This document shows positions 14,430 to 35,760 of a DNA stretch of 64,000 nt, one piece after another. The notes under the pieces are model-generated. The model had not been told where the DNA came from and ran no database searches. It saw only the letters and a program-made list of their open reading frames with translations. Made by a program: the position numbers and the translations under genes. This DNA is from an uncultured Candidatus Bathyarchaeia archaeon (GTDB lineage: Archaea; Thermoproteota; Bathyarchaeia; 40CM-2-53-6): NCBI GenBank assembly GCA_964598845.1, contig CAZRDM010000005.1, positions 32,765 to 96,764 of the forward strand, given 5' to 3'. Each line of letters begins with the position of its first letter. The stretch's first letter is position 1.

Positions 14430-15229
14430 AGCTTGCAGATAGAGTTGCGATAGTGACAGGCGCATGGCGTGGTATAGGCGGAGGCGTAGCCAAAGTCCTA
14501 GCTGAGCACGGCGCATGTGTCGTCCTCACAGACAGGGAAAACGCCGTCGAAGATGCTGCTGCAAATCTCTCGAAAGCTGGTTTCAGTGCAATCGCCTTCA
14601 GAATGGACGTGACGAATGCGGATCGGGTGAATAACGTAGCTGAGCAAGTCCTCAGCAGGTTCGGAAGGATAGACATCCTTGTCAACAATGCAGGAATCTA
14701 TCCACGATGCAACTTGATCGAAATGTCGGATGATTTTCTGCAGAGGATGTTTGATGTTAACGTCTTTGGAATGTTCAGATGTGTTAGGGCGGTCATCCCT
14801 GTGATGATGAGACAGAAGTATGGGAAAATAGTGAATATGTCCTCCGTCACGGGACCGATGGTCGGCGATCCTTCGGGAGGGCAGACCGCTTACGCGGCAA
14901 CGAAGGCAGCGGTTTTGGGCTTTACGAAAGCATTGGCCTTGGAAGTGGCTCAGTATGGCATAAATGTGAACTGCATTTGCCCAGGGCACATCGACACTCC
15001 AGGAGGGAGAGAACAAACCTCTGAACCTAGCTTTCCAGATAAGAGCGTGGACGAGTTAGGTCACACAATTCCGATGTGCAGAGTTGGTACACCGGAAGAA
15101 GTCGGAGAACTAGTTGCATTCCTAGTTTCTGATGAATCGAAGTACATGACAGGGGCACACATAGTAATTGACGGTGGAAACATCATACAGGAAACGTACC
15201 GCGGCCCCTACACGCCCAAGCACAGCTAG
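14426..15229 (+). CDS. SDR family oxidoreductase
   Basis: VTGAWRGIGGG, NNAG, and YAATKAA motifs. The start ATG at 14426 overlaps the gcvPB stop (ATGA); the ORF-track start at 14375 is an upstream extension. Confidence 0.8.
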   Translation: MKLADRVAIVTGAWRGIGGGVAKVLAEHGACVVLTDRENAVEDAAANLSKAGFSAIAFRMDVTNADRVNNVAEQVLSRFGRIDILVNNAGIYPRCNLIEMSDDFLQRMFDVNVFGMFRCVRAVIPVMMRQKYGKIVNMSSVTGPMVGDPSGGQTAYAATKAAVLGFTKALALEVAQYGINVNCICPGHIDTPGGREQTSEPSFPDKSVDELGHTIPMCRVGTPEEVGELVAFLVSDESKYMTGAHIVIDGGNIIQETYRGPYTPKHS

Positions 15230-15276: not shown

Positions 15277-16722
15277 TTGAAGGATGTTCTTCCAACGTGT
15301 CAGGTGCTAGGACGGAATGAGATGGATGTTCTCCATGATGCTTCGCTCGAGATTCTCGAAAATGTCGGAATGGTAGTTCTGGAGAAAACCTGTTACAAAC
15401 TGCTTGAGGACGCTGGGGCAATCGTTGATCCAGCTAGCAAGCTCGTGAAGATCTCAAGACATCTTGTTGAGGAGGGTCTCAAGAAAACACCCAAAGGAGG
15501 AAGAGTCCACTTTGCGAGAATTTCAAAGTACGATTTCAAGACCGGGGAAGGTCAACTTTTCTTCAGAGGCGGTACCCTCGGACCCCATCTAATTGACATA
15601 GAAACCGGTGCTCATAGGTCGGCTACTCGAAAGGATTTCGTGAACCTTGTGAAATTCTTGGACGCTATGGACACTATTCATGCTGTGATGTTTCCTTGTG
15701 CCCCTTGCGATGTTTCGGCGGAATCCTTCTCTCAGCAGCTAGCTACGCTGACCTTGGAAAACACAGCTAAGCCGATAGGTGTTGTAGCTCACGGGAAGAA
15801 GAGCGCTAGAGACATCATTAGACTATCTACGGCCGTTGCAGGAGGAATCGAAGAACTCACCAAACGACCAATACTACAGCTTCTTTGCGAACCTCTTAGC
15901 CCGTTGAAGTTGGACGAGAGGCAAGGCGAGAATCTAGTAGAATTTGCCGAGCACAAGCTCCCAGTTGAAATAGCGAGTATGCCTGCTATGTGTTCTACTG
16001 CTCCGGCAACTATGGCGGCAACAATAGCTCAGCTCAACGCTGAACATCTATGCATGATCCTAATTGCTCAGCTTATCAACCCGGGAACTCCAATCTCGCT
16101 CAATGCATGCGCGGGTTGTATGGATCCAAGGACTGGGACGAACACTTACGGAGCTGTCGAGAGGGTGTTGCTTAACGCGGCGGTCGTGCAGCTTTGGCGG
16201 TCCTACTATGGGATAGAGACCTACGCTAGCGCTGCGCTCACGGACTCAAAGTTACCTGATGAGCAAGCTGGCTATGAGAGAATGATGAACATGCTATTGC
16301 CGGCTCTGGCGGGACTCGACATGATTACAACGCTCGGCTACCTGGAATCATACCTGACCATCAGCTTTGAGCAGATACTGATCGATAATGAGATCGCGAG
16401 CATGATCCTAAGAATACTGAGGGGAGTTGAAATCAACGAGGAAACCCTAGCCTTGGACGTGATTGAAAAGGTTGGGCCTGGACAACACTTCTTGGCTGAG
16501 AAACACACCCTGCGACACGTGAACGAACTGCTACTGCCCAAACTCGCCAACAGAAGTACGAGAGCAGATTGGGAGCGCGGCGGAGGAAGAGACATAGCAG
16601 GCCTTGCTAGGGAGAGAGCAAGACTGACCCTAGAAGCTCACGAGCCGGAGCCGCTCGAGAAAGATATCCGCAAGAAATTGCATGAAATGTCAAGAGAAAT
16701 GGCTATCGATTCCCGCGATTGA
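15277..16722 (+). CDS. MttB-superfamily methyltransferase (trimethylamine/glycine-betaine methyltransferase family, non-pyrrolysine type)
   Basis: 481 aa with the N-terminal LHDASLEILENVGMVV signature of the MttB family and no in-frame TAG. It is a paralog of the 24850 gene. Confidence 0.75.
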   Translation: MKDVLPTCQVLGRNEMDVLHDASLEILENVGMVVLEKTCYKLLEDAGAIVDPASKLVKISRHLVEEGLKKTPKGGRVHFARISKYDFKTGEGQLFFRGGTLGPHLIDIETGAHRSATRKDFVNLVKFLDAMDTIHAVMFPCAPCDVSAESFSQQLATLTLENTAKPIGVVAHGKKSARDIIRLSTAVAGGIEELTKRPILQLLCEPLSPLKLDERQGENLVEFAEHKLPVEIASMPAMCSTAPATMAATIAQLNAEHLCMILIAQLINPGTPISLNACAGCMDPRTGTNTYGAVERVLLNAAVVQLWRSYYGIETYASAALTDSKLPDEQAGYERMMNMLLPALAGLDMITTLGYLESYLTISFEQILIDNEIASMILRILRGVEINEETLALDVIEKVGPGQHFLAEKHTLRHVNELLLPKLANRSTRADWERGGGRDIAGLARERARLTLEAHEPEPLEKDIRKKLHEMSREMAIDSRD

Positions 16723-19112: not shown

Positions 19113-19347
19113 TCGCAATGGACGCCACCTGCTGCTGATGCTGTTTTCGCATCTGCATGTCACATCACTTCTCCATAAATCTAATGAAAGATCATCTTTC
19201 CAGTCTTTCGCGTCCTAGGGGAGCCTAGGTCTTGGGCACTGCACCCTAGGATTCCGTCTTGGAAGACAGCCGCAGGTAACAACATCATACATGGCATATG
19301 CAGTAAAGACCAAAGTTTGAAGTACTCATCAGAAATACCTCGACCGA

Positions 19348-19638
19348 GTGCGGATTTTGAGTTACTTTGAACTTGTCAGGGGAATACCTGGGGAGCTTCA
19401 GGGGAAGGTCGCTGATAGCTTGGTCGATCTGATCCTCAACTCCTCAAATGCCTCTAAACTCTCCGGCAACTTGGCCAGGTCGATTCTGCGTCATTGGCAG
19501 AGTAACCAGCTCGCGACGGAATCGGGCTTGGCAACCTTGGTTGAGGCCTCGCTGCAGATTGAACCACAGAAAACATCGGAGGCATTCAGTGGACTCGGTC
19601 TGAGCGCGATAGCTGAGAGGTTGCGCGTCAAAGTGTAA
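19348..19638 (+). CDS. hypothetical small protein
   Basis: 96 aa ORF lying between annotated genes, with no recognisable family. Confidence 0.25.
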   Translation: MRILSYFELVRGIPGELQGKVADSLVDLILNSSNASKLSGNLARSILRHWQSNQLATESGLATLVEASLQIEPQKTSEAFSGLGLSAIAERLRVKV

Positions 19639-19654
19639 TTATGGGGTGTGAGGG

Positions 19655-20647
19655 ATGGTCGAATTTGGCATCGAGTTCGTTCCACAACATCCTTTCTGGA
19701 AAACCACCTTCTTGACCATGCAAGCTGAGAAGGTTGGATTTCGTTACGTCTGGATTACGGACCACTACAACAATCGCAACGTGTACGTCTCACTGAGCAT
19801 GGTAGCCAATTACACAGACAAGATAATCTTAGGACCGGGCGTGACAAATCCATATTTGTCGCATCCTGTCATCACAGCCCAAGCCGTGGCCTCGCTCGCT
19901 GAGATGGCACCCGGGAGAGTTGTATGCGGTCTTGGCGCGGGCGACAAGACAACCCTCAAGATGCTCAATGTGAGCCAAGAGAAGCCACTGGCCGCTATTA
20001 GAGAGTCCGTGGCGGTGATACGTGACCTTACTTCGGGCAAACCGGCTGAGGTAAAGGGTGAGGTGTTTAACGTCTCTGGCGCAAAATTCTTCTTCCAAGT
20101 TCCAGCTCCCGTGAAGGTATTCATCGGCGCTCAAGGTCCGAATATGCTGATGCTCGCGGGCGAGATCGGAGATGGGGTGCTAATCAATGCGTCACACCCG
20201 CGAGACATCGAAAACGCAGTCAAATATCTGAAAGACGGTGCCAGCAAGGCTGGCCGAGCTATCGCAGACGTAGCGGTGGCAGCCTATACCTCGTTCTCCA
20301 TCTCCACGGATCCTAAGAAAGCCGTTAAGGCGGTGACACCGGTAGTAGCGTACATTGTGGCGGGGTGTCCTCAATCTGTTCTTGACGTTCATGCAGTCTC
20401 GCGTGAATCCGCTGCCAAAATCCGGGATGGCATATCGCGGGGACAATGGAAGGATGCATTCGGCCAAGTTACGCCAGAGATGATCGAGGCGTTCTCGATA
20501 TGTGGGACACCTGATATATGCATCGGGAAGATCCACAACCTCGTAAAGCTGGGCGTAACCCAAATCGTCGTCGGGTCCCCGATAGGACCAAACATCCGCG
20601 AAGCGATAAGTCTCATCGGGGAAAATATTCTCCCGAAGTTTGCGTGA
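19655..20647 (+). CDS. mer: F420-dependent 5,10-methylene-H4MPT reductase
   Basis: The N-terminus FGIEFVP...VWITDHYNNRNVY...LGPGVTNPY...GLGAGDK is near-diagnostic for Mer within the LLM family; about 330 aa. Confidence 0.85.
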   Translation: MVEFGIEFVPQHPFWKTTFLTMQAEKVGFRYVWITDHYNNRNVYVSLSMVANYTDKIILGPGVTNPYLSHPVITAQAVASLAEMAPGRVVCGLGAGDKTTLKMLNVSQEKPLAAIRESVAVIRDLTSGKPAEVKGEVFNVSGAKFFFQVPAPVKVFIGAQGPNMLMLAGEIGDGVLINASHPRDIENAVKYLKDGASKAGRAIADVAVAAYTSFSISTDPKKAVKAVTPVVAYIVAGCPQSVLDVHAVSRESAAKIRDGISRGQWKDAFGQVTPEMIEAFSICGTPDICIGKIHNLVKLGVTQIVVGSPIGPNIREAISLIGENILPKFA

Positions 20648-20672
20648 ACACAGAGCATCCGGATACCCTCAG

Positions 20673-21659
20673 ATGACAGAAATCCTCATCCTTTCAGCCT
20701 CCGATGCGAAGAAACTTGTCACTATGCGTGACATCATCGGTGTGGTTGAAGAGGCGTTTCGGGCATACGGAACAGGCAACTCTAAACTTGCACCAGTGGT
20801 CCTCTCCCTCATCGACAAGTATGATGGTGAACTCGAAATCAAGTCTGGATATGTGGAGAACTTCTCAGTTGGAACAAAGATCATCACATACTACAAAGAC
20901 AATCGATCACGCTACGGCCTTCCAACTCTCTATGGCATCATAGTTCTGAACGACTTGAGCGACGGTAGACCCCTCGCGATTATTGATGGAGCTTACATAA
21001 CGGCTACTCGGACGGGTGCAGCAGGAGCCGTCGCCGCGAAGTATCTGGCACGAAAGGATTCTGAAAGGGTGGCTGTTATTGGTGCAGGAACATAGGGACG
21101 ATTCCAAGTGGTTGCTCTGAACGAGGTTCTCGGAATCTCAACTGTAGGAATCTATGATCATCAGCCTCAAAATGCAGTCAAATATGCAAAGGAAATGTCG
21201 GATCAATTCGGGTTCAAAGTCGAGCACATGGAATCCGCAATGCAGGCAGTCCAAGACGCAGACGTCATCATCACTGCGACCCCTTCAACCAGTCCAATAG
21301 TTTTGAACGAATGGATCAAGGAAGGGGTTCACATCAACGCAATCGGCGCCGATGCCCCAGGCAAGGAAGAGCTGGACTCAGCAATAGTGGCACGAGCCAA
21401 GGTAGTTGTCGACAGTATGTCTCAATGCGCGGAGAGGGGCGAAATTCAGACGGCCGTGAGGCTTCGCCTACTAAAGAGGGACGCAGTATACGCAGAGCTT
21501 TCGGACATCGTACTCGAACGGAAGGCCGGTAGAGTCAACGCCCAAGAATTAACACTCTTCGATTCTACGGCCTTGGCGATTCAGGACATTACCACCGGGT
21601 ACGCAGTATACGAACTAGCTAAGAGGCAGGGCATCGGAATCAAAGTCAGCATAGAATAG
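20673..21659 (+). pseudogene. ornithine cyclodeaminase/mu-crystallin family (archaeal alanine dehydrogenase-like) gene interrupted by an in-frame TAG at 21093..21095
   Basis: ORFs 20640..21095 and 21108..21659 are in the same frame. The junction reads VIGAGT*GRFQVVAL, where family members have GAGxQA, so a single CAG-to-TAG change at a conserved Gln fits. Confidence 0.7.
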
Positions 21660-21690
21660 CCAGCACTTTTCATGATCCACGAGAGATATA

Positions 21691-22842
21691 GTGACGATGG
21701 TTTGGTGCAAAGGTATGAGGCTTCGTATCTTTGAGATGGAAAGATGGCAGTCGACTTGGGAGAACCGAGTAGAATACAATCTTTCTGAGAGCGGTGTGCA
21801 TCCGCTCCAGCTTGTCGAGTTGTTGGACGGCGACGTTCAATCGCTGAGCCAATTCTCTTTAGGCTACAGCCAGACGAACGGGACCAAAGAACTAAGGAAA
21901 ACCATAGCTGCCAACTATACTGGAGCAGATTCGGAAAACGTCCTAGTCACTAACGGAAGTTCAGAAGCAAACTTCGTAGCGATGTGGTTGTTCCTCGATA
22001 GAGGCGCTGAGATCGTCGTCTTGCTTCCCAACTACATGCAGATCTGGGGTCTAGGAAAGACCTTCCAAGCCAACGTGAAATCCTTCAGGTTGCGCGAGCG
22101 AGATGGTGAATGGAAACCCGACATACAGGCGCTGAGGAAAGCAGTGAGTAGGAAGACGAAACTGATCGCAGTATGCAATCCAAACAACCCAACAGGCGCC
22201 ATAATGCGCGAAGATCTAATCGACCAGATTTGTGAAATCGCTGGGAAAGTGGGGGCGTGGATACTTGCTGACGAGGTCTACCAAGGCGCGGAACTCAACG
22301 GGAATATGACTCCCACATTCTGGGGCAGATACAAGAAAGTAATAGTGAGTAACGGGCTCTCAAAGGCCTACGGGCTCCCAGGGCTTAGAATCGGTTGGAT
22401 AGTAACTACGAAAGAACTCGCCGGAAAGCTCTGGTCGTACCATGACTACACGACGATATGTCCAACTGCTCTCGGCGACTACTTGGCCACAAGAGCTCTG
22501 CAGCTGGAGATGCGAAAGAAGATTCTGACGCGGACTAGAGAGATTCTTCAAATCAATCTGCCAGTAATCAAGAGCTGGGTTGAAGCCCATGCGGAGGACT
22601 TCTCGTTCATACCGCCACAAGCCGGGGCTATCGCTTACATAAAGTACAATCTCAAAATAAACTCAAGCCACCTCGCTGAACGCCTTCTCAAGGAGAAGAG
22701 CACTCTGATAGTACCAGGCGACCAATTTGGAATGGACGGCTACATGCGCATCGGATATGGAGCTCCAAGAGGCTACTTGGTGGCAGGTCTGAATCGCATA
22801 GATGAATTGGTTCAGCAGATTAAAGATAGAACTCGACAGTGA
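21691..22842 (+). CDS. class I/II pyridoxal-phosphate-dependent aminotransferase
   Basis: NPNNPTG motif and SKAYGLPGLRIGW around the PLP lysine. Confidence 0.8.
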   Translation: MTMVWCKGMRLRIFEMERWQSTWENRVEYNLSESGVHPLQLVELLDGDVQSLSQFSLGYSQTNGTKELRKTIAANYTGADSENVLVTNGSSEANFVAMWLFLDRGAEIVVLLPNYMQIWGLGKTFQANVKSFRLRERDGEWKPDIQALRKAVSRKTKLIAVCNPNNPTGAIMREDLIDQICEIAGKVGAWILADEVYQGAELNGNMTPTFWGRYKKVIVSNGLSKAYGLPGLRIGWIVTTKELAGKLWSYHDYTTICPTALGDYLATRALQLEMRKKILTRTREILQINLPVIKSWVEAHAEDFSFIPPQAGAIAYIKYNLKINSSHLAERLLKEKSTLIVPGDQFGMDGYMRIGYGAPRGYLVAGLNRIDELVQQIKDRTRQ

Positions 22843-22941
22843 TCACAGACCCTCCTAACTAGATGGTCGCTAGCCCACCGAGCGGGCAGCTTGTTCCTCT
22901 TATACATCTAAAGAATAGTTAGTTGTCGTGCTGGGCCGGAT

Positions 22942-23859
22942 TTGCGCAAGGGGCAAAGACCTCCAAGTCGAGAAGACTTCTTCGGTCTCGTGCACTCGAC
23001 CGCCGCAACAGATCTTATTGTGATCGGTGTTCCTTGGGATGCTACGTCATCATACCGATGTGGAGCAGCCGCGGGACCTGATGCGATTAGGGCTGCAACC
23101 AGTGGGCGTCTCTATAACCGCTTCACGGAGCGAGGCATGGATCTGGCTGACATATGGAAGGTCTGTGATCACGGTAACGTCAAGAAGGCTGGTGATGTTC
23201 CTGAGCTCAAGAAGAGGTTAGCTGTCGCTGCAAGCCTGCATAACCACGCCAACGCTCCAATGCTTTTCCTAGGAGGGGACCACTTCGTCACCTACCTCTG
23301 TTTTCGACTAGTGGAGGAAATGCAAAAACAGTCGCCCTCCTTACTCTACTTTGATGCGCACCCTGATTTGTACGAAAGCTACGAGGGCAGTCCATACTCT
23401 CACGCCACAGTTGTTTCACGAATCTTGGATGGAGACAACACTTCCAAAACTGTTTGCTATGTTGGCATTAGAGCTTCAACGAGAGAGCAGGATGAAAGGA
23501 TTAAGAAATTGGGATTCACCACATACACGACGCAGGATGTTCATGCGAGAGGCTCGGGCGCAATCGCTTCTTTGATAAGATCCACGCTCTCGGACAAACC
23601 GGTCTATCTCTCAATCGACCTAGATTGCTTAGATCCAGCGTTTGCTCCGGGAGTCGGGAATCCCCAGCCAGGAGGCTTGAGTACAAGACTGATGCTCGAC
23701 ATACTGCAGGGGATTGAAGGTCTCAAGATCGTCGCCACCGATATTGTTGAGTACTCCCCCAAGTTTGATTCGCAACGAACAACAGCCTTCACTGCGGCGA
23801 TTCTCATAAAGGAACTATTGGGTATAATGGCCCAACTCCATGTGAAGAAGCAAACGTAA
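22942..23859 (+). CDS. arginase/agmatinase/formiminoglutamase (ureohydrolase) family protein
   Basis: Metal-binding motifs GGDH, DAHPD, and SIDLDCLDP. Confidence 0.8.
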   Translation: MRKGQRPPSREDFFGLVHSTAATDLIVIGVPWDATSSYRCGAAAGPDAIRAATSGRLYNRFTERGMDLADIWKVCDHGNVKKAGDVPELKKRLAVAASLHNHANAPMLFLGGDHFVTYLCFRLVEEMQKQSPSLLYFDAHPDLYESYEGSPYSHATVVSRILDGDNTSKTVCYVGIRASTREQDERIKKLGFTTYTTQDVHARGSGAIASLIRSTLSDKPVYLSIDLDCLDPAFAPGVGNPQPGGLSTRLMLDILQGIEGLKIVATDIVEYSPKFDSQRTTAFTAAILIKELLGIMAQLHVKKQT

Positions 23860-23935
23860 GTTTAACGAGATCTCAAAGTCAGTATTCGACAGCAAGCATT
23901 ATGAGCCCTCTTCTCATGACTTCCGGTGACCGCCC

Positions 23936-24835
23936 ATGTTGAGCATCGAAAGAGAACATAAATCGTTTCAAATTGGTCGCGTGAAGATTGGAGGCAAACC
24001 TGGCCAAGCGCCCACTGTCTTGGTCGGGACCATCTTCTACAATAAGCACTACATCGTGAAGAACGAGATGAAAGGAGAATTCGACCGCGATGAAGCAGAG
24101 AAACTGATCAAGGCGCAGGAGGAGTTCTCCGACAAGACAGGCAATCCGCATATGATTGATGTTGTAGGAGCCACTCCCGAAGCGCTCATTGGATTCCTGG
24201 ATTTCGTTTCGAGTGCTACAGAGTCTCCGATCCTGATGGATGGAATAACACCCGGAGTTAGGATTGCGGGACTAGATTACGTGAAGAATTCTGGGCTCAA
24301 AGACCGTGTTGTGTACAATTCCCTCGTGCTCGAGTACAAGAAAGAGGAGCTTGAGAAGATACGAGAGGTTGGGATAAAGAGCGCCATAATTCTCACGCTG
24401 AACACGAAGGAGTTCACCTCTCAGGGAAAGGTAAAGGCAGCTCGTGAACTGCTACCGGTGGCAGCGGCGGCAGGGATAGAGAAGCCTCTCATCGATACGG
24501 CTGTAATCGACATACCAAGCCTTGGGATGGCGTGTCGCGCTATACACGAGTTAAGAGAAGAATTCGGTCTCCCCGTGGGGTCGGGAGCTCACAATGCTAT
24601 CGACACTTGGAAGGGCCTCAAGAAGAAGATGGGGGTCCAAGCAAAGGACCCTGGCTTGGCGTCGGCATGCGCAATAACTGTCGCCTGCGGCGCTAACTTC
24701 GTTCTATACGGACCAATAGAACATGCGAACTATGTCTTTCCATCCATCGCCATGGTAGACGCAGCGCTCGCTCAACTTGCGATGGAGCAGAAAGCCATGC
24801 CTGACCCGAAGCACCCGATCTTCAAAATAGCCTAA
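23936..24835 (+). CDS. MtrH-like methyltransferase (pterin-binding; methylcobamide:H4MPT methyltransferase family)
   Basis: The N-terminus FxIGRVKIGGKPGQAPTVLVGTIFY matches the MtrH family; about 300 aa. Confidence 0.8.
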   Translation: MLSIEREHKSFQIGRVKIGGKPGQAPTVLVGTIFYNKHYIVKNEMKGEFDRDEAEKLIKAQEEFSDKTGNPHMIDVVGATPEALIGFLDFVSSATESPILMDGITPGVRIAGLDYVKNSGLKDRVVYNSLVLEYKKEELEKIREVGIKSAIILTLNTKEFTSQGKVKAARELLPVAAAAGIEKPLIDTAVIDIPSLGMACRAIHELREEFGLPVGSGAHNAIDTWKGLKKKMGVQAKDPGLASACAITVACGANFVLYGPIEHANYVFPSIAMVDAALAQLAMEQKAMPDPKHPIFKIA

Positions 24836-24849
24836 CCTCATCTGCTGAC

Positions 24850-26319
24850 GTGAAGATGAAATTTGAATTTCTAGACGCCAGCCAAACCGAAGCCATTCAC
24901 GAAGCGAGCCTCGACATACTAGAGAATACGGGGGCAACATTTCTCTCACAACAAGCGCAGAGAATCCTAGCGGAAGCTGGAGCACGCGCAAACGGGAAAA
25001 CAGGGAGCGTGAGGATCCCACGAAGCCTAGTCAAAGAAACCCTCCGACACTGCCCATCCGAGTTCCGGCTTTACGCTCGGAATCCAAAATACAATCTGCA
25101 GATAGGCGGAAAAAACCAGTACATGACATGTGGCGGGGAGTATCCGTACATCCTTGACCTAGAAACAGGAACGCGTCGACCTGCCCTTTCCAGCGATCTA
25201 GTGCCCATAATCAAGGTCACCGATGCCTTGGAGAACATCAGCGTCGGTGGCAGCTACATGATAGCTCCAAGCGACATGCCGGAAGAGTATCGTCATATAG
25301 AGAGAGGCGTCCTGCACTACAAGTACACGTCCAAGACGACTCATTGGGACACGGAAGGATACGTGGGCCAGAGTGGAGAGCTTGGCGCAACCCACAACCT
25401 TCAACTGGCCGCTGTCATCTCAGGAGGGATGCAACAGCTTTCCAAGAAACCCATAGGAACTGCGAGCATCTGTCCATCAAGCCCTATGATCTACGACATC
25501 GGCTTGACCGATGACATCATCGAATATGCAAGACACAGAGTTCCAATCTTGATTGAACCCATGGACAATACCGGAGCAACCTCGCCAAACACCATCGCGG
25601 GGTCGCTTGTTCAGACAAATGCTACCGTGCTCGCTGGACTAACCCTTGTTCAGCTCATCAACCCCGGCAGCCCAGTTGTCTATGGGAGCATTCCGGTCAG
25701 CCTTGACCTGCGTACAGGGATACCAGCCGCGGGTTGCCCGGAAGCAGCCTTGCGATGCGCAGGAGGGGCGGAGATGGCTAGGTACTATGGTCTCCCTTCA
25801 GCCATGTCAGGCGGGGTGACCGATTCGAAGCTTCCGGATGTGCAAGCTGGTTTCGAGAGCGCATTGACAATGCTCACGACTGTCCTCGCAGGAGCCAATT
25901 GGATTCGCGTTGTCGCAGGGGCTCTCGAGTATCACTTTACCGCATCATTCGAGATGCTTGTAATTCACGACGAGTTATTTGGAATGGCAATGCGAATAGC
26001 GCGTGGGATAGAAGTCAACGAGGATACCTTAGCAGTATCACTCATCAAGAAGATAGCGCCTCTTCGAGGGCATTACATGGGAGAGAAGCATACACTTGAC
26101 CACCTCAGCGCCGAGAGGTATCTGTCAAAACTCAGCGACAAGCGAACCCGCGGCGACTGGGAAAAAGCTGGATCAAGACATTTAGCTGACGTAGCCAAGG
26201 AGCGTGTCAAGGTGATTCTTGCAGTGCACCAACCCGAACCTTTGCCGAAAGATATCGAGAAAGAACTCGATGCAAGAAAAGCGGAAATAGAGAAACGATT
26301 ATCCAGAGAACGTCTTTGA
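24850..26319 (+). CDS. MttB-superfamily methyltransferase (non-pyrrolysine type)
   Basis: 489 aa with the N-terminal IHEASLDILENTG signature. It sits immediately downstream of the mtrH-like gene. Confidence 0.8.
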   Translation: MKMKFEFLDASQTEAIHEASLDILENTGATFLSQQAQRILAEAGARANGKTGSVRIPRSLVKETLRHCPSEFRLYARNPKYNLQIGGKNQYMTCGGEYPYILDLETGTRRPALSSDLVPIIKVTDALENISVGGSYMIAPSDMPEEYRHIERGVLHYKYTSKTTHWDTEGYVGQSGELGATHNLQLAAVISGGMQQLSKKPIGTASICPSSPMIYDIGLTDDIIEYARHRVPILIEPMDNTGATSPNTIAGSLVQTNATVLAGLTLVQLINPGSPVVYGSIPVSLDLRTGIPAAGCPEAALRCAGGAEMARYYGLPSAMSGGVTDSKLPDVQAGFESALTMLTTVLAGANWIRVVAGALEYHFTASFEMLVIHDELFGMAMRIARGIEVNEDTLAVSLIKKIAPLRGHYMGEKHTLDHLSAERYLSKLSDKRTRGDWEKAGSRHLADVAKERVKVILAVHQPEPLPKDIEKELDARKAEIEKRLSRERL

Positions 26320-26346
26320 TCTCGTGAAGGGTTCTCTATGTCTAGC

Positions 26347-26985
26347 TTAATGCCGAGAGTCTGGCTTCGCACCTCTCGAGGTCACGTTTGGCTTCAAGTT
26401 CGAGTTGAATCCGATCAGGACTGTACCCCTGTCGGGATCGCTCGTCTCCCATCCAGCTCTTCTCTTGATGTAGAGATCAGTGGTGAGCGAAACGCTAGCC
26501 GACACTACGTCGCAGATTCCCTGAATCGTTTCGATCTCAGGAAAGCTTTGAGGTCCAATTACGAATCTAACCGGTTTTCCCCTAGTGGCTTCCAGTCTGT
26601 TTCTGAATAGAACGAAATCCTTGCCTAGAAAGATCACATTGGGATCGGCTCGAAATCTGGTGACTTCGCCTTCCTCCCAAACCTCTCGGCCAATCACATC
26701 CTTCTCAGCTGTAAGAAGCAAGATCGGCATGGAAGGATGACGCAGACTAGATGAATGGTTGATGCAAACGACAGATTGACGCCCCAAGACGACCTTCACA
26801 CCCTCGTTTACAATATCAAGACCTGGAAGACCGAAACCTCCACTTGCCTTCTCCTCCATTTGGAGGATCGCAGTTCTCTCAGACGCATCCACCGGCCATA
26901 CATCTACGACACCTGGAACTAAACGAAGTTTCGAAACGACTGCGTCAAGGAAACTGAAGCCCGCGGTCCTCTTAGAAGGGTTCAC
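26347..26985 (-). CDS. hypothetical protein
   Basis: 212 aa ORF convergent with the MttB gene; no confident family assignment. Confidence 0.4.
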   Translation of the reverse strand: MNPSKRTAGFSFLDAVVSKLRLVPGVVDVWPVDASERTAILQMEEKASGGFGLPGLDIVNEGVKVVLGRQSVVCINHSSSLRHPSMPILLLTAEKDVIGREVWEEGEVTRFRADPNVIFLGKDFVLFRNRLEATRGKPVRFVIGPQSFPEIETIQGICDVVSASVSLTTDLYIKRRAGWETSDPDRGTVLIGFNSNLKPNVTSRGAKPDSRH

Positions 26986-27019
26986 TGCCTATCCCATTCA
27001 TGTTGCATGTCGTCCGCGT

Positions 27020-27748
27020 TCATGTCAGAGGCCACTTCAGTAGGTTCGCTTTTTCGACTGCGACGAGAACTGGGGTAGCGACGAGTGCACAGACGACTGC
27101 GACAAGAATTCGTACGGCAGGGTCCAAGAAGGTGTATGGAATGAACAGGGCTGGAAGCATTTCCTTCTGTAGGCCGAAGATTGGTTCGGCCTCTAATAGG
27201 AAAACCAAGTTACCTGCAGCTCCGTCCATCTCGGTACCAATGAAGGAGACCAGGCCTATAGTAGGTACTAGCGCCTTTACATTCCCGCGATTTCCGAGGG
27301 AGCGATTCGTCAGCTTGGAGATCGGATACACAAGAATCAAGGCAATGGTCTTGTCCCAATTAGCATAGAGGAAGACCCCCGATCCGAATGGGTGAACTAG
27401 GAAACCGAGGAGGATAGCTGCGACTAAAACGATCACCGGTTTCCATTTAGCTTTCAGAAGCATACCAGCGCCGAATGCGCCGATGACCCCGGGGATCCAA
27501 GTTGCTAACCCCAAGACCGCCGTGGAGGGCCAGATTACGCTTGAAACGACCCCCCCGATGAAGGCAGCGAACATTCCGCCCAATGGTCCCAGGAAGATCC
27601 CCTCGGAAGGTTTCATCAGGGCACCTGCTGACGGGCCATAGGGGATCAATGGAACAACAGAGAGAACAACATCTAGCGCTGCGAATGCACATACAAGGGT
27701 AACCAATTTAGTAGTCGGCCTCTCACTTGACAATGTGATTGCCCGCAC
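27020..27748 (-). CDS. polytopic membrane protein (possible ECF-type substrate-capture component), paralog family member 1
   Basis: Multiple TM helices. It shows clear similarity to the ORF at 37681 (EGIFLGPLGGMFAAFIGG vs EGIIGGPLYGSVAAIIGW; LVHPFGSG vs LVHPFARA). Confidence 0.55.
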   Translation of the reverse strand: MRAITLSSERPTTKLVTLVCAFAALDVVLSVVPLIPYGPSAGALMKPSEGIFLGPLGGMFAAFIGGVVSSVIWPSTAVLGLATWIPGVIGAFGAGMLLKAKWKPVIVLVAAILLGFLVHPFGSGVFLYANWDKTIALILVYPISKLTNRSLGNRGNVKALVPTIGLVSFIGTEMDGAAGNLVFLLEAEPIFGLQKEMLPALFIPYTFLDPAVRILVAVVCALVATPVLVAVEKANLLKWPLT

Positions 27749-27973
27749 GTAACTGCGTTTTCAGGCCATTATCGTTAATAGTGTTCAGCCTATTACTACC
27801 ATTACCACTACTTACTATTGCCCAGTTGCCTAGTCGGCTCTTCTACGGCTACCTTTTCTACTCTCAACATCATCATTTTGAAGAAGAACCGTTGAATGAA
27901 TGCACCAAGCGTCAGTCGTGTGCAATGCTTGCGAAGGCAGGTTCTCGATCTCGGCGTGACAAGTAGAGCCTCG

Positions 27974-28915
27974 ATGAGCGAGATGATCAGGATAGCCTCT
28001 GAAGCTAGGCGGGGCAATGTCTATGGAATCTGGATAGGCGAAGACATAGCCTTCAGTCGTGATGTCTTCGTGCAGGCCAGCGTGCTAATGAGAAACGCGC
28101 CCAATAGGAATGTCGGGATAGCGGTAACTAGCCCCGCCGTTCATAATATCACAACAATCGCCAGAGCGGCCGCATCTCTGAGACAGATTGATCGCGGCTG
28201 GTTCAGGTTAAGTCTGGGAGTGGGAGGGCTGCAAGACCTAGCGAGGCTTAGAGTGACCGTTGCTAAATCCGTCGCCATGATGAAGCAGGCTATGGACGCG
28301 CTTCGGAAGATTTGGGCCGGCGGAACTGTGACCGTCCAAGGTGAAACTTTTGAGCTCAGACGATTCCAAGCGAGGTACCGATCTGGCCTTGAGATTCCAA
28401 TATATCTCGGAGTCCGCGGCCCGAAGCTGCTTAGGCTCGCGGGACGAACCGCGGATGGAATAATCCTAAGCGGTCCCTTGCCGTACTTGCAGCAGGCGAT
28501 CGATCTGATTCGAGCAGAGGCCACTTCACGAGACTCACGAGCCCGATTCAGAATCGTTGTATGGTTGCCAACATTGGTTGTCAAAGCCAAGAAAGACAGG
28601 GACCTTGCAAGAAGTGTGGCAGCCACTGTGATTGCCGACACCCCGCCCAATGTGCTTGAGATGGCTAGAATCCCAGAAGATGACGTTGGCAGTTTACGAA
28701 GAACTGCGCACCAGCAAGGCTACACCGAGGCTTCAAAGTATGTCACTGATGAACTGCTGGAAAGTTTCACATTGGCGGGCGACACGGCACATATCTGTGA
28801 AGCTTTTCTGTCGTTAGGGAGGCTTGGTGCCGACGAGGTCATATTTGGGCCACCCTATGGGCGGGATCGACTTCATTCAATTCGCGAGGTAATCAGAGCA
28901 TGGGCGCGACTCTGA
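27974..28915 (+). CDS. LLM-class F420-dependent oxidoreductase family protein
   Basis: Luciferase-like monooxygenase fold motifs (GIWIGED..., GVGG). The internal ATG start is preferred over the ORF-track start at 27896. Confidence 0.75.
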   Translation: MSEMIRIASEARRGNVYGIWIGEDIAFSRDVFVQASVLMRNAPNRNVGIAVTSPAVHNITTIARAAASLRQIDRGWFRLSLGVGGLQDLARLRVTVAKSVAMMKQAMDALRKIWAGGTVTVQGETFELRRFQARYRSGLEIPIYLGVRGPKLLRLAGRTADGIILSGPLPYLQQAIDLIRAEATSRDSRARFRIVVWLPTLVVKAKKDRDLARSVAATVIADTPPNVLEMARIPEDDVGSLRRTAHQQGYTEASKYVTDELLESFTLAGDTAHICEAFLSLGRLGADEVIFGPPYGRDRLHSIREVIRAWARL

Positions 28916-29835
28916 AGTTCGGACTGGGCGTCAATGCAAACGAAGCGCTCCAGGGCATAGTGAAGAAAAGCATAGCCGCCGAGGCTGTCGGTTTAGACTA
29001 CATCTGGGTGGCCGATTCACCAGTCCAGCTCTATGCACCTGTCATCGCATCTGAGGTTGCATCAGCCACGCATAGAATTCGCATAGGCCTTGGCTTGATG
29101 AGTGTTCTACTACACGCTCCCCGCCAAGTTGCTGGCGCGATCACTACTCTCTTCGAAGCTTACGGGGATCGGTTCGATATCTGCATTGGGATGGGAGACC
29201 GACGACAACTTGAGCGCGTTGGCGTTAAGGGGGTGAATACCGAAAAGCTACCCCTCAATGTACTGGAAGCGAGAGACAAGATAGTTTCCCATCTACAACA
29301 GGCGAGGATCAGGACCAAGATCTGGCTCGGAGCTCAAGCACCGAAAATGCTCAGGATAGCGAGAGGCTTCGATGGAGTGCTGCTGAACTACTCGAATCCT
29401 GAAATGATAGCTTGGGCCATTACTGAAGCGGGGCTAGGCCGCAAATCAAAGACGCCGCAGGTGAAGATCGGAACATACTCCCCTTCCTATGTTTACATGA
29501 AGCCCGAATCACGCATGCTTGAACGAGTGAAAGTCTCATCTGCGGTCGTTGCGCTCGGCGCGTCAAGCAAATTGCTAAGACGATTGGGGCTCTGGGGGAG
29601 GCTCCGCAGAGCTAAGAGGAGAGCGGAGACAGCCGCGACGATGGAAAGCATTCTTCCAGAAGTGCCCGACGAGGTCGTAGAATACTTCTCGGTAACGATG
29701 AAAGCAGCGGATCTTCCATCATACTTGGCTACGTTGAAGAACCTTGGAGTGGGTCATATTGTGTTCGCTTACCCCCAGAACTATTCCCTCAAAACAGTGA
29801 GAGAGTTAGGGAAGGCTCTGCAATTCGCCTCATAG
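28900..29835 (+). CDS. LLM-class F420-dependent oxidoreductase family protein
   Basis: N-terminal KFGLGV...YIWVADSP, LLM family. It overlaps the preceding LLM gene by 16 nt. Confidence 0.75.
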   Translation: MGATLKFGLGVNANEALQGIVKKSIAAEAVGLDYIWVADSPVQLYAPVIASEVASATHRIRIGLGLMSVLLHAPRQVAGAITTLFEAYGDRFDICIGMGDRRQLERVGVKGVNTEKLPLNVLEARDKIVSHLQQARIRTKIWLGAQAPKMLRIARGFDGVLLNYSNPEMIAWAITEAGLGRKSKTPQVKIGTYSPSYVYMKPESRMLERVKVSSAVVALGASSKLLRRLGLWGRLRRAKRRAETAATMESILPEVPDEVVEYFSVTMKAADLPSYLATLKNLGVGHIVFAYPQNYSLKTVRELGKALQFAS

Positions 29836-32257: not shown

Positions 32258-33232
32258 TTACGTGGTCGCCAGTCCCATTGTCTGTTTCAGAAGCTGCCCA
32301 TCAACCTTCCCGGAAGTGTGAGTGACTCCTGTCTTCACATTATTGACAGCAAACATCGCAGGTGCGAAAATGTTAGGGTCAATCTTGTAGAAGTCAAACT
32401 CAGCAGCTTTGAATATCTCATAGAAAGGCTTCCCGTAGTCTTTGGATGTTGATGAAGGAGCCTTATGGACGAGTTCTTTCAGCTTCTCGTCATCCTCGAA
32501 GTCAACTGAGTAGAATGTGACACCGCCATAGGCTATTGCATCATTTGTTCGACCCATAGCCTTGGCCGACTTGGGATGAATCGGAGCTATGGGAGCGTAT
32601 CCACACCCATAGAGAATTCTCCTTGGATCGAAGCCAATCTCAGTAAGCCTATGGATTCCGGTCTCAACAATTCTTCCGGAGATCTGAACGGATCCCGCCA
32701 TTGAAGTCGTGGGCGCTACTAGAACGTGGAGATTCGCTAAAGGGATTTCGCATTCTTTCGCAATATATTCGAGGGCTTCCTTCGTTGGGTACTTGTCAGC
32801 CTCGAGCACAATTACGGCTTTATCCGATTTGTCTTTGTACTCGATCTTCTGGTAGAGTTCTTTTGGTTTGAGAGCGAGGGCGCGAGCTGGGCCGGATCCC
32901 ATAGCGAAGTAGTCGGAGGTCTTTATCTGCCAACCGGCGAACTGTGCTCCCAGAGTCGCGATGGCCGGAAAGTCTGTCTCAACGTGCACGCTTGGCAGTA
33001 CGATGCCGTCGTAGCTCATGTGTGTAATGGAGGCCTTGCCTAAGTCACCCAAGCAGGCCTCCGTCATGAACTTGCCTGCCGAGAAGCCTCCTCGGACCTT
33101 AATGCCTAGGTCGATTATGGTGGCTCCTGTTTCATGTCTCTCTGTGAGTATGCCGAGTTCCTCTGCGTGTTGGATGCCCCATTCCACTAGCTTCGCAGTT
33201 CTCTCGTTGACGCTTACGGGCATCTCCGTCAT
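32258..33232 (-). CDS. mch: methenyl-H4MPT cyclohydrolase
   Basis: Near-colinear match to Mch (TDFPAIATLGAQFAGW, GSGPARALALKP, LVAPTTSMAGSVQISGR, KAMGRTNDA, GKPFYEIFK). The start ATG at 33230-33232 overlaps the fwdC stop (ATGA). Confidence 0.9.
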   Translation of the reverse strand: MTEMPVSVNERTAKLVEWGIQHAEELGILTERHETGATIIDLGIKVRGGFSAGKFMTEACLGDLGKASITHMSYDGIVLPSVHVETDFPAIATLGAQFAGWQIKTSDYFAMGSGPARALALKPKELYQKIEYKDKSDKAVIVLEADKYPTKEALEYIAKECEIPLANLHVLVAPTTSMAGSVQISGRIVETGIHRLTEIGFDPRRILYGCGYAPIAPIHPKSAKAMGRTNDAIAYGGVTFYSVDFEDDEKLKELVHKAPSSTSKDYGKPFYEIFKAAEFDFYKIDPNIFAPAMFAVNNVKTGVTHTSGKVDGQLLKQTMGLATT

Positions 33233-34059
33233 GCCTCCAAATATTTCTCGTACCACTTCAAATGGGGGTTGTTCTTGAGGCTGACCGACAATCTGCCTTT
33301 GCCTTCCTCATTCATGTCTCCCGAGAAAGCATAGAAAGGTCCTGGGACTTTCTCTTCGCCCACCTTGACCTTGTCTTGGATCTGTTCAAAGGAAAAGCTC
33401 GGTAGAATCGACGGGAGTTGGCCGCCTATAATGACCTTGCCGCCCTTCATCTGTGCTCCGGCTCGCCCGTCACAGTTGCCTCCGACGAAGATCGTTCCGT
33501 CGGCCATGTGAATGCCGGGGAAGATTCCAGCGCTACCCTTGATCCTGATCGTTCCATTTGCCATCCAGCATCCCACCTCGTGGCCCGCATTGCCGTGGAT
33601 GATTATCGAGCCGTTCTTCATTCCGAGAGTAGTTCCTCGGTACCCAGCTCCGATGTAGTCGGCGGCGTTGCCTTTGACCTCGATCTGTCCTCCTCTCATT
33701 TTTGTGCCAAGCCAAGAGCCTGCGTTTCCAGAGGCCAAGATTGATCCACCCGACATCTCCTCGCCTAGATACATACCAGCGTTACCATCTACGATCAAAG
33801 ATCCGCCAGACATCTTGTACCCCACCTTCCGGATCTTTGCGGCATCACCAACAATTCTAATGGAAGTCTCATCAGGGCCTTCACCCTTTTTCTCAGCGAC
33901 CTGGAAAATGTCGGCAAGCTCGATCCGCCTGTTTCCTTCCCACGCCTTGGTCGTCTCGATCTGTCTCATCGATTTCTCAGTGAATTTTGTGGGTGAAATT
34001 TCTCGGCAGTCAACAGGGAGCTGGAGGCTTCTTCTGATCGCGAGCACGATCTCTCTCAA
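33229..34059 (-). CDS. fwdC: formylmethanofuran dehydrogenase subunit C
   Basis: Repeated GxxGxxxG beta-helix units (GNAGMYLG, GNAGSWLG, GNAADYIG, GNAGHEVG) as in FwdC/GltB C-terminal domain. Confidence 0.85.
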   Translation of the reverse strand: MREIVLAIRRSLQLPVDCREISPTKFTEKSMRQIETTKAWEGNRRIELADIFQVAEKKGEGPDETSIRIVGDAAKIRKVGYKMSGGSLIVDGNAGMYLGEEMSGGSILASGNAGSWLGTKMRGGQIEVKGNAADYIGAGYRGTTLGMKNGSIIIHGNAGHEVGCWMANGTIRIKGSAGIFPGIHMADGTIFVGGNCDGRAGAQMKGGKVIIGGQLPSILPSFSFEQIQDKVKVGEEKVPGPFYAFSGDMNEEGKGRLSVSLKNNPHLKWYEKYLEA

Positions 34060-34062
34060 CGG

Positions 34063-35760
34063 CTAAACCTCTGCTTTGACGGTGATTCTGCTCGGGTTTG
34101 CCAGCTCGTTATCATCCATTGCGTAGTTGTCCATTTGAACTGTGTAGTAGTCGTCGAAGGTCTTCCTCATCTCGGACTCCACATCTTTCATGAGGCTCTC
34201 AGAAACCTTGCTGTCAACCCAGTAGGTGCGTCCGAGCGGTGCTTCAACTATCTCCCCATTCTTGACTACTATTCTTCCATCCTTGATGGTGAAGGCGGCT
34301 CTCTTCAGGGCCTTCCTGACAAGTCGATAGTCCTTTGAAGGGTCGATCTTTGTCGGGTCTAGGTTGTAGATTGAGACATCAGCATCTGCGCCGATTCCGA
34401 GATGTCCCTTCTGGCGTAGCCCCAAGGCCTTGGCGGTCCCAGCGCGCGTGATTATGACGATCTCGGGGAACGAGTACTCTCTATCTATTCCCGGCAGGTC
34501 GAGCTTCTTCTGCGCTGTCTTGTTGATCCTCCCAACGGACTTCTCTCTTGCTTTCTTGCTCATCAGCCAAGCGATGATTTTTGGATACTTCGTGAACGTG
34601 CCACCATTCGGATGGTCGGTAGTCAGATAGACGCGCCAAGGGTCTTTAACGAGAAGGGCGAGTTCGAGGCCGATGCCCCACTGGATCGCGTTCACGTAAT
34701 TGTTTCGTCTGTACTTGTATGGGACGACGCCCGCTCCCGTCTCGACCTCGACATCGAAGTTCATCCACTTGTTCCCTGAGAGTTGATAGAGCATATATTG
34801 GAAGCCCCCATCAGCTGTCATCGTCGTCGTGTCCATGAATACAACTTGACCCAAGTCGACTGTGACATGGTCGTGCTTGTTCACGTAATCTCCTATCTCA
34901 GGCGCTCCGGAGCCGATATTATGCCATGCCGACCCGCTCCGGCCAGTGAACTGGACATGGGTTATGTGGATTATGGGCTTGTTGTCGTGGGCGAGGTCTC
35001 TGACTGAGTCCATCGTCGCGATGGTTGTCTCGTAGTTTCCAATCTTGGCGAGGTCATTGGTATGTACATGGATTGTGTGCGGGAGTTTCAGGAGCTGATT
35101 GACTTTGCAGATTCCTCGAACGATCTCCTTGGGTGTGATATCGAAGTTCGGGACATGGTCCTTGAGGCCGGTGATGTATCTTCCCCACCTCCAGGCCTCG
35201 ACGCCCCCGGGGTTGACTACCTTTATGGCATATCCCTTGGTTGCCCTAAGCATCCATGACACGTAGGCCGCGCATTCTTCTACACGGCCCTGTGCGAGAT
35301 ATTCCAGCGTTCGCCAATCATTACCGAAGAGTGGGAAACAACCCTTATCCACTATTGGAGTGTCGTCGAGTTCCTCGTGAGTATGCCTTGTCTTCATGAG
35401 AGGTGTGGCTGGCTCGAAGACGGTTGTGTAACCCATTCTTGCATATCGATAACCCGTTGTGAACGTTGAGGGAATCGACTTCCCAGTTCCAGCGCGAGTC
35501 AGCGATGTACGCGTCTCTACATCTTTCTCATGGTCTTCAGGCCTCAGTATCCTACCGGCGTTTACCTTTGACCCTGCTATGTGGGAATGAATATCGACCC
35601 CGCCCGGCATCACCATCATGCCAGAGGCATCGATCACCGTCGCGCTCGCGCCAACGTTCTTCACAATCTTGCCATCTTTGATGTAGATGTCGAGTTTTTC
35701 GCCTTCGATCCCGTTAAGCGGGTCGAAGACGATCCCATTCCTTATGGCCAGTTCACTCAA
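34063..35760 (-). CDS. fwdA: formylmethanofuran dehydrogenase subunit A (amidohydrolase)
   Basis: 565 aa; N-terminal IRNGxVFDPLNGIEGEKxDIxIKDGKI...GGVDIHSH matches FwdA. Confidence 0.9.
   Translation of the reverse strand: MSELAIRNGIVFDPLNGIEGEKLDIYIKDGKIVKNVGASATVIDASGMMVMPGGVDIHSHIAGSKVNAGRILRPEDHEKDVETRTSLTRAGTGKSIPSTFTTGYRYARMGYTTVFEPATPLMKTRHTHEELDDTPIVDKGCFPLFGNDWRTLEYLAQGRVEECAAYVSWMLRATKGYAIKVVNPGGVEAWRWGRYITGLKDHVPNFDITPKEIVRGICKVNQLLKLPHTIHVHTNDLAKIGNYETTIATMDSVRDLAHDNKPIIHITHVQFTGRSGSAWHNIGSGAPEIGDYVNKHDHVTVDLGQVVFMDTTTMTADGGFQYMLYQLSGNKWMNFDVEVETGAGVVPYKYRRNNYVNAIQWGIGLELALLVKDPWRVYLTTDHPNGGTFTKYPKIIAWLMSKKAREKSVGRINKTAQKKLDLPGIDREYSFPEIVIITRAGTAKALGLRQKGHLGIGADADVSIYNLDPTKIDPSKDYRLVRKALKRAAFTIKDGRIVVKNGEIVEAPLGRTYWVDSKVSESLMKDVESEMRKTFDDYYTVQMDNYAMDDNELANPSRITVKAEV

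Follow-up and report, generated by a model that had tools for sequence, protein, structure and literature searches.

In a 64,000-nucleotide stretch of contig CAZRDM010000005.1 from an uncultured Candidatus Bathyarchaeia sediment archaeon (hereafter the window), the gene for a stand-alone MtrH-family methyltransferase is followed at once by the gene for MttB1, a methyltransferase of the MttB superfamily that lacks pyrrolysine (positions 23936-26319). We consider it fairly probable that the two proteins serve as MT1 and MT2 in a corrinoid-dependent methyltransferase system of three components, which delivers methyl groups to tetrahydromethanopterin (H4MPT). In the proposed scheme, MttB1, a predicted TIM-barrel enzyme, would bind a methylated, probably quaternary, nitrogen compound and hand one of its methyl groups to a corrinoid protein in the Co(I) state, after which the MtrH-family enzyme would move the methyl group from CH3-Co(III) to H4MPT. 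The CH3-H4MPT so formed could be oxidized by enzymes that are encoded around the pair (Mer, Mtd, Mch, Ftr and Fwd), or could instead enter acetyl-CoA synthesis by carbon monoxide dehydrogenase/acetyl-CoA synthase, for which the window has no genes. Genes for the corrinoid protein and for a reductive activase, if there is one, would lie elsewhere in the genome. MtgB and other members of the MttB superfamily are proven cobalamin-dependent MT1s (PMC13080624, PMC12155760). The genes of the pair are as follows:

23936-24835, plus strand: MtrH-family methyltransferase, putative MT2 (methyl-corrinoid:H4MPT methyltransferase), 299 aa, PF02007 and NF002142
24856-26319 (alternative GTG start at 24850), plus strand: MttB1, non-pyrrolysine MttB-superfamily methyltransferase, putative substrate-specific MT1, PF06253

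The MtrH-MttB1 gene pair

The product of the first gene matches the Pfam MtrH model PF02007 over its full length (295 bits) and passes the NCBIfam MtrH family model NF002142 (330.7 bits, cut-off 287). It stays below the cut-offs of two equivalog models, that for the MtrH of the MtrA-H complex (TIGR01114; 257.3 bits, cut-off 271.4) and that for MtgA, the methyl-corrinoid:tetrahydrofolate (THF) methyltransferase (NF047990; 240.2 bits, cut-off 550). Pfam scans found none of the other mtr subunits (mtrA-G) in the window, where MtrH is thus stand-alone. The nearest solved chains are 8z9u_B (287 bits), MtgA of Desulfitobacterium hafniense (6sj8, 200 bits) and the MtrH of an Mtr complex (9qtp, 187 bits).

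Against PF06253 (Pfam MTTB, COG5598; cut-off 25), MttB1 scores 372 bits and a second paralog in the window, MttB2, scores 309 bits, with approximately positions 30-490 of the 500-position profile covered. On metagenome contigs of identical sequence, gene callers place the start of MttB1 at the ATG at 24856, giving a protein of 487 aa and a spacer of 20 nt after MtrH; the GTG at 24850 would shorten the spacer to 14 nt. MtrH and MttB1 are two separate open reading frames (ORFs) on the same strand, with no gene fusion. At least 59 clusters share at least 71% identity with MttB1, those that are named being Bathyarchaeia, and the named relatives of both proteins of the pair carry the label "Candidatus Bathyarchaeia archaeon." A promoter and terminator scan of positions 19200-28000 returned chance-level counts, the models being of bacterial type and uninformative for an archaeon.

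A first-pass annotation of this DNA had described an mtrH-like gene followed on the same strand by an mttB-like gene and a second MttB paralog at 15277-16722 after gcvPA, gcvPB and an SDR-family gene, and it had seen neither an in-frame amber codon in either MttB gene nor a corrinoid protein or RamA-type activator in the window. The model matches and scans given here and below bear out all of these descriptions.

Gene neighborhood and synteny

The pair is surrounded by a complete methyl branch of the H4MPT pathway. Genes between Mer and Ftr that are discussed below are listed with it, and L007 and L008 denote related loci:

19655-20647, plus: Mer, F420-dependent 5,10-methylene-H4MPT reductase (TIGR03555, 409 bits, cut-off 349)
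20640-21659, plus: ornithine cyclodeaminase/mu-crystallin-family (OCD) gene, broken by a TAG at 21093-21095 (Pfam OCD_Mu_crystall matches both halves)
21691-22842, plus: class I/II pyridoxal phosphate-dependent aminotransferase (best models PRK07324, GntC and VioD-like, all below cut-off; syntenic with MtrH-MttB1 in L007/L008)
22942-23859, plus: arginase-family ureohydrolase, agmatinase-like (PF00491, 243 bits; TIGR01230, 191 bits, cut-off 174; absent from the syntenic L007)
26347-26985, minus: unk212, conserved uncharacterized protein of ~190 aa, convergent to MtrH-MttB1
27020-27748, minus: polytopic membrane protein (hydropathy profile), adjoining unk212 here and also in L007 (12100-12816, minus; 76% identity)
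27896-28915 and 28900-29835, plus: two tandem Mer-like LLM-class F420-dependent oxidoreductase paralogs (NF002619, 153 and 100 bits, cut-off 276)
32258-33256, minus: Mch (PF02289, 419 bits)
33229-37467, minus: FwdC, FwdA, FwdB and FwdD, formylmethanofuran dehydrogenase subunits (GXGXG, Amidohydro_3, Molybdopterin and Molydop_binding domains)
38302-39147, minus: Mtd (PF01993, 385 bits)
39195-40199, plus: Ftr (PF01913 and PF02741, 188 bits each)

Much of this arrangement is shared with related loci. The gene order in L007/L008 is hypothetical gene-Mer-OCD-aminotransferase-MtrH-MttB-(two minus-strand genes)-MobA-Mch-FwdCABD-Mtd-Ftr, and the linkage of MtrH to MttB1 is kept there across two lineages that diverge by ~17-20% at the protein level. 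In L014 (CAZYOZ01, a GTDB representative metagenome-assembled genome [MAG]), synteny with the window extends over more than 20 kb, and the block Mer-OCD-aminotransferase-MtrH-MttB1-unk212-membrane protein-MobA-Mch-FwdCABD-Mtd-Ftr is kept in the L007/L014 genome, whose MttB is 83% identical. Compared with the L007 order, the window carries two sets of insertions, namely the agmatinase-like gene, the two Mer-like LLM genes and an AOR gene and, further upstream, the series G1PDH-like-gcvPA-gcvPB-SDR-MttB2-AOR-MoaD. Genome and metagenome scans returned only three loci for MttB1 and three for MttB2, so that synteny statistics come from few lineages. The MtrH-MttB1 pair is a conserved part of a C1-pathway gene neighborhood, and it is chiefly from this placement that we take H4MPT to be the probable methyl acceptor.

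RimK-like, CofE-like and CitG-like genes also lie in the window. Between Ftr and the RimK-like ATP-grasp gene, inside the H4MPT/F420 cofactor gene neighborhood, two tandem paralogous ORFs of ~350 aa (40185-42276, minus) give weak matches to nucleotidyltransferase domains.

Absence of pyrrolysine

The MttB1 and MttB2 ORFs both terminate at a TGA and are free of in-frame TAG codons. The position that holds pyrrolysine (Pyl) in the canonical enzyme, set here by the UAG of the Rfam model PYLIS_3 together with residue 334 of 7xcl, is a GTG (Val) codon at 25816 in MttB1 and a CTC (Leu) codon at 16237 in MttB2. Both proteins also fall short of TIGR02369, the equivalog model for the Pyl-type trimethylamine methyltransferase (423.3 bits for MttB1 and 421.0 bits for MttB2, cut-off 525). 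PYLIS_3 itself scores above its gathering threshold of 38 in both genes (43.1 bits at 25816-25912 and 39.4 bits at 16237-16337, both plus strand); these matches start at the Val and Leu sense codons and reflect homology of the coding sequence, and we discount them as false positives for a recoding signal. We reject a reading of TAG as Pyl more generally: 27 of the 61 ORFs in the window end in TAG, more than in any other ordinary stop codon.

The TAG that breaks the OCD gene falls at the Gln of the dinucleotide-binding motif IGAGTQGRF of the intact L007 ortholog. An identical TAG is found in an independent assembly, L013 (15365-16384), from a 99.8%-identical strain (39 differences from the window over 16,445 aligned bases). 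It is most likely a fixed nonsense mutation rather than a recoded codon. An interrupted gene of another kind occurs in L005, where a second MttB homolog (8367-9817, minus), divergent from the MttB1 ortholog of that locus, is split into two ORFs of 310 and 175 aa; their overlap of 10 nt suggests a frameshift or a pseudogene and not a Pyl codon.

Active sites and substrates of the two MttB paralogs

In D. hafniense MtgB, mutagenesis and a ligand-bound structure have defined the glycine betaine site: the carboxylate is bound by R312 and H348, and cation-pi contacts come from Y97 and F356. MtgB with R312L or H348E is inactive, and all characterized quaternary-amine members, among them MtcB, MtpB, MtyB and MthB, retain R312 (PMC13080624). 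We aligned both paralogs and 21 homologs with the 9yce and 7xcl sequences (rebuilt from phmmer alignments) using MAFFT, with the numbering checked at all four residues. The residues found at the MtgB positions and at the Pyl position are as follows:

D. hafniense MtgB: Y97 Y, R312 R, Pyl position L, H348 H, F356 F
MttB1 (identical in all eight orthologs at ≥74% identity): Y97 G, R312 A, Pyl position V, H348 V, F356 H
MttB2: Y97 T, R312 Y, Pyl position L, H348 T, F356 Y
MttB2, 55%-identity clade: Y97 S, R312 F, Pyl position V, H348 S, F356 Y
Methanosarcina barkeri MttB: Y97 G, R312 Y, Pyl position Pyl, H348 G, F356 G

The carboxylate-binding R312 and H348 (D. hafniense numbering) are thus absent from both MttB1 and MttB2, and the MAFFT and phmmer alignments agree on this. 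The cation-pi pair is replaced by Gly/His in MttB1 and by Thr/Tyr in MttB2, where the second position alone is aromatic. The column of R312 is reliable, being flanked by the conserved YG-PS and DSK motifs; Y97 lies in a loop where the alignment is less certain. Directly preceding the H348 position, the MttB1 clade conserves an Arg (W-x-R-V) that might contribute a positive charge from a different direction. All pairwise identities of the two paralogs to MtgB and to Pyl-containing MttB lie at 30-36%, those to MtgB (31-34%) being no higher than those to the Pyl enzyme; MttB1, for example, is 34% identical to D. hafniense MtgB and 35% identical to M. barkeri MttB. The paralogs share 36% identity with each other. 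In a neighbor-joining tree in which MtgB is the characterized quaternary-amine enzyme, MttB1 and MttB2 fall into clades of their own, neither of which is sister to MtgB. Both are thus non-Pyl MttB-superfamily enzymes for which the first-pass label "MtgB-like" is not supported, and glycine betaine is probably not the substrate of the pair, since the Arg/His pair with which MtgB binds the carboxylate is missing.

The genes around MttB2 bear on the same question:

11476-12870, plus: gcvPA, glycine decarboxylase P-protein subunit (NF001696, 524 bits, above cut-off)
12867-14429, plus: gcvPB, glycine decarboxylase P-protein subunit (NF003346, 566 bits, above cut-off)
14375-15229, plus: SDR-family oxidoreductase, between gcvPB and MttB2 (SDR models, up to 285 bits)
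15277-16722, plus: MttB2, second non-pyrrolysine MttB-superfamily paralog (PF06253, 309 bits)

From this arrangement the first-pass annotation had derived a route from betaine through dimethylglycine to glycine. An alternative hypothesis is accordingly that both paralogs are MtgB-type enzymes and that MttB2 opens a betaine-dimethylglycine-sarcosine-glycine pathway into glycine cleavage. In its favor, gcvH has been noted near mtrH/mttB in Asgard archaea (PMC11291895), and D. hafniense MtgB is the best solved-structure match of both paralogs (9yce/2qne; 277 bits for MttB1 and 230 bits for MttB2). The adjacency itself is kept in three lineages: in L013, a 99%-identical strain; in L011 (1-2973, 71% identity), where gcvPB lies immediately upstream of the MttB2 ortholog with no SDR gene between; and in L012 (4709-9386, 55% identity), where gcvPA-gcvPB are transcribed divergently from it. 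However, the betaine-site residues are replaced at four of four positions in MttB1 (G/A/V/H) and at three of four in MttB2 (T/Y/T), including the two whose substitution inactivates MtgB, and both the low identity to MtgB and the tree speak against membership in its group. The 64-kb window contains neither gcvT nor gcvH. Characterized members of the superfamily without Pyl demethylate a quaternary amine once, and none is known to take dimethylglycine or sarcosine, which are tertiary and secondary amines, to glycine. We therefore regard such a betaine route as unlikely.

What survives of the earlier proposal is the gene linkage. The retention of the MttB2-gcvP adjacency in three lineages supports, at the level of sequence, a functional link between MttB2 and GcvPAB. 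We propose that MttB2 is a second MT1 with a specificity different from that of MttB1. Together with the reported gcvH association in Asgard archaea, the linkage may mean that the association of gcv with mttB genes is more general.

Neighboring genes offer a lead on the substrate of MttB1. In L005, an MttB1 ortholog lies away from MtrH amid M20 peptidases and an Opp/Dpp transporter, and in L009/L010 one lies amid an M20 peptidase, an S58 peptidase, saccharopine dehydrogenase, CoA-transferase subunits and thiolase. The ortholog in L023 is near a BKACE beta-keto-acid cleavage enzyme, a class V aminotransferase and an SDR gene, and that in L015 is directly followed by an LLM oxidoreductase (8255-9304, plus), with an unk212 homolog nearby. 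An Opp-type transporter and an X-Pro dipeptidyl peptidase are encoded at the start of the window. Upstream of the pair, in the window as in L007, are the OCD-family and aminotransferase genes. Taken together, these neighbors point loosely to methylated amines derived from amino acids or peptides. Without the Arg/His carboxylate site, both Bathyarchaeial MttB clades may act on a new class of substrates, for which candidates may be non-acidic or amino-acid-derived methylamines from peptide, lysine or arginine catabolism in the case of MttB1 and a glycine-related compound in the case of MttB2.

Corrinoid protein, activation and the partner protein unk212

Several observations weigh against the reading of the pair as part of an H4MPT-linked corrinoid system. 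MtrH adjoins the MttB1 ortholog in only two of the six distinct MttB1-clade lineages sampled. We infer H4MPT rather than THF as the acceptor from gene context. The broken OCD gene belongs to the conserved block and may mean that an ancestral pathway is partly decaying. Finally, Pfam scans of essentially all ORFs of at least 100 aa found no B12-binding or RACo domain in the window. A six-frame scan of the window for DxHxxG matched only the arginase-family gene, a longer B12-binding motif had no match, and tblastn searches of the window were likewise empty for two queries from related loci, one a corrinoid protein of Bathyarchaeia and the other a RACo activase.

Both missing parts are found beside orthologs of this MtrH in other loci. 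In L021, an MtrH ortholog of 68% identity is divergent from a gene for a 222-aa B12-binding protein (DIHDIG), which is followed by a 486-aa MttB homolog, and in L020 an ortholog of 73% identity lies directly downstream of a 580-aa Fer2-RACo (RamA-type) activase. In L022 (62% identity), both the corrinoid protein and the activase are absent within 7 kb. The first two loci indicate that Bathyarchaeia do possess the classical parts, in linkage with orthologs of this MtrH. For the window, an unlinked corrinoid protein elsewhere in the genome would be the simplest account. There is a precedent in Eubacterium limosum, where several MttB-family MT1s share one unlinked corrinoid protein (MtqC) and one MT2 (MtqA). 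The corrinoid-dependent transfer onto H4MPT that the first-pass annotation had proposed is thus supported by the MT1/MT2 pairing, the full H4MPT branch and loci L021 and L020; the betaine route that it had suggested for MttB2 is not supported.

Convergent to the pair is unk212, orthologs of which come after MtrH in four of the five MtrH lineages sampled, all within Bathyarchaeia. It has no sequence match in Pfam, NCBIfam or PDB, even with a 50-sequence profile. Its structure model bears a remote likeness to the nitroreductase fold, the Foldseek comparison with PDB not being significant. Among the members of this fold are B12 proteins, namely CblC, reductive dehalogenases and QueG. The protein unk212 may be an unrecognized component of an archaeal MtrH methyltransferase module and could act as a flavin- or cobamide-dependent activator or as a cofactor-processing protein. 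If so, its role would bear on the "missing activating enzyme" of cultivated Bathyarchaeia. That the active-site differences and this conserved MtrH partner jointly point to something new is a tentative and rather doubtful suggestion. The adjoining membrane protein could be a substrate or cofactor transporter; it has no family match (the best, an ECF folate S-component model, has an E value of 1.2), and its single-sequence AlphaFold2 model, with a pLDDT of 42, is unusable.

These features can also be read to mean that no classical corrinoid protein is involved and that the methyl group is exchanged through free cobamide or through unk212 as a new cobamide-binding or cobamide-processing component. 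MtrH reportedly reacts with free cob(I)alamin in vitro, and the recurrence of unk212 after MtrH, the resemblance of its model to a fold that holds B12 proteins and the lack of a corrinoid protein in the window fit such a scheme. In addition, free cob(I)alamin serves MtgB as a methyl acceptor in vitro (PMC13080624), and two cultivated Bathyarchaeia are without a recognizable activating enzyme (PMC10989822, PMC10477458). However, L021 has an unk212 ortholog as well as a normal corrinoid protein, and L020 has one as well as a RACo activase; unk212 therefore replaces neither. We think an exchange of this kind quite unlikely, and favor a conventional corrinoid protein encoded away from the pair.

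Direction of transfer and meaning of the adjacency

Transfer in the anabolic direction has also to be considered, with MtrH moving a methyl group from CH3-H4MPT, a product of the Wood-Ljungdahl pathway, onto the corrinoid. The MtrH of methanogens runs in this direction, and the neighbors with roles in amino-acid metabolism (the aminotransferase, OCD-family and agmatinase-like genes) would suit it. Conversion of a tertiary to a quaternary amine by methyl-cobalamin is, however, thermodynamically unattractive, and the related MttB1 orthologs sit amid catabolic genes (peptidases, Opp transporter, BKACE, CoA transferase, thiolase). Although Loh et al. raised the anabolic alternative explicitly (PMC7886697), all characterized MttB-superfamily enzymes demethylate an amine substrate (PMC13080624, PMC12155760), and we hold it to be very unlikely here.

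That MttB1 came to lie beside MtrH by rearrangement, with the two enzymes serving unrelated processes, is most improbable: most sampled MttB1 orthologs do lie away from MtrH and gene content near the pair varies (agmatinase-like, LLM and AOR genes inserted relative to L007), but the shared orientation and the 14- to 20-nt spacer are kept in two lineages ~17-20% apart in protein sequence, and MttB-MtrH linkage recurs independently in L021, in Culexarchaeia and in Asgard archaea (PMC9723716, PMC11291895).

Comparison with known systems

Production of methyl-H4MPT by a non-Pyl MttB together with MtrH has already been proposed for other archaea (PMC9723716, PMC11291895, PMC7886697). In Culexarchaeia, a stand-alone mtrH lies beside mttB, a corrinoid-protein gene and an activase gene, without Pyl, and the cluster was read as catabolism of quaternary amines or unknown methyl compounds into the Wood-Ljungdahl pathway (PMC9723716); mtrH-mttB clusters of Atabeyarchaeia and Freyarchaeia were read in the same way (PMC11291895). 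The pair described here resembles these mtrH-mttB-mttC(-ramA) clusters in combining a stand-alone MtrH with a non-pyrrolysine MttB (COG5598) in an H4MPT Wood-Ljungdahl organism, with no methyl-coenzyme M reductase in the region examined and with the same proposed role. Unlike in those clusters, the corrinoid protein and activase lie outside, the pair is embedded in the Mer/Mch/Fwd/Mtd/Ftr block and the lineage is Bathyarchaeia.

Within Bathyarchaeia, mttB has been reported as the commonest partial methyltransferase gene in MAGs (PMC11264602). Pairs of a corrinoid protein with MtrH (CoP-MtrH) are known from Bathy-6, BA1/BA2 and Methanomethylicia, with catabolic or anabolic readings (PMC7886697). 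The experimentally verified Bathyarchaeial system acts on methoxylated aromatics through MtgA (MtrH-type), MtgC and a different MT1 of ~300 aa (PMC10989822). The Bathyarchaeial CoP-MtrH systems ("MtgC-MtgA"; Bathy-6, PMC7886697; Bathy-8 O-demethylase, PMC10989822) share with ours the class and a stand-alone MtrH-type MT2 proposed to serve H4MPT, and MtrH orthologs at 68-73% identity are found beside a corrinoid protein (L021) or an activase (L020). In those systems MtrH pairs with the corrinoid protein, whereas its partner here is a 487-aa MttB homolog. The Bathyarchaeial "MtgB" O-demethylase of Yu et al. was considered as a relative and set aside; at ~300 aa it is Bathyarchaeia-specific and does not belong to the MttB family.

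With the MtgB/MtgC/MtgA system of D. hafniense (PDB 2QNE, 9YCE; PMC13080624), the pair shares the MT1 superfamily, an MtrH homolog (MtgA, 200 bits), the lack of pyrrolysine and a hydrophobic residue at the Pyl position. It differs in its 31-34% identity, in the loss of Y97, R312, H348 and F356, in having no adjacent corrinoid protein and in its acceptor, which is THF in D. hafniense and probably H4MPT here. M. barkeri MttB (PDB 7XCL) belongs to the same fold family (248 bits for MttB1 and 228 bits for MttB2) and has in common with MttB2 a Tyr at the position of MtgB R312; in contrast to it, Val or Leu replaces Pyl in the two paralogs, with no UAG, and neither mttC nor a coenzyme M methyltransferase is nearby.

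Other features of the window

Two further features lie farther downstream. A free-standing ORF of 290 aa with a LAGLIDADG_3 homing-endonuclease-like domain (47773-48645, plus) stands between aminotransferase and superoxide dismutase genes, and an ORF of 114 aa (61243-61587, minus) that matches only the N-terminal third of the LLM family is probably a gene fragment.

Implications

The locus illustrates well how a putative MT1-MT2 pair can be set among the genes of the H4MPT pathway. Annotation of these MttB homologs as glycine betaine or trimethylamine methyltransferases would be inadvisable. The practical value of the analysis lies in the active-site evidence against betaine specificity, in the conserved link between MttB2 and gcvP and in unk212, a conserved partner of MtrH and a candidate for biochemical study. 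Which methylated compounds can be used to feed the Wood-Ljungdahl pathway affects estimates both of carbon flow and of the competition of these archaea with methylotrophic methanogens for methylamines.

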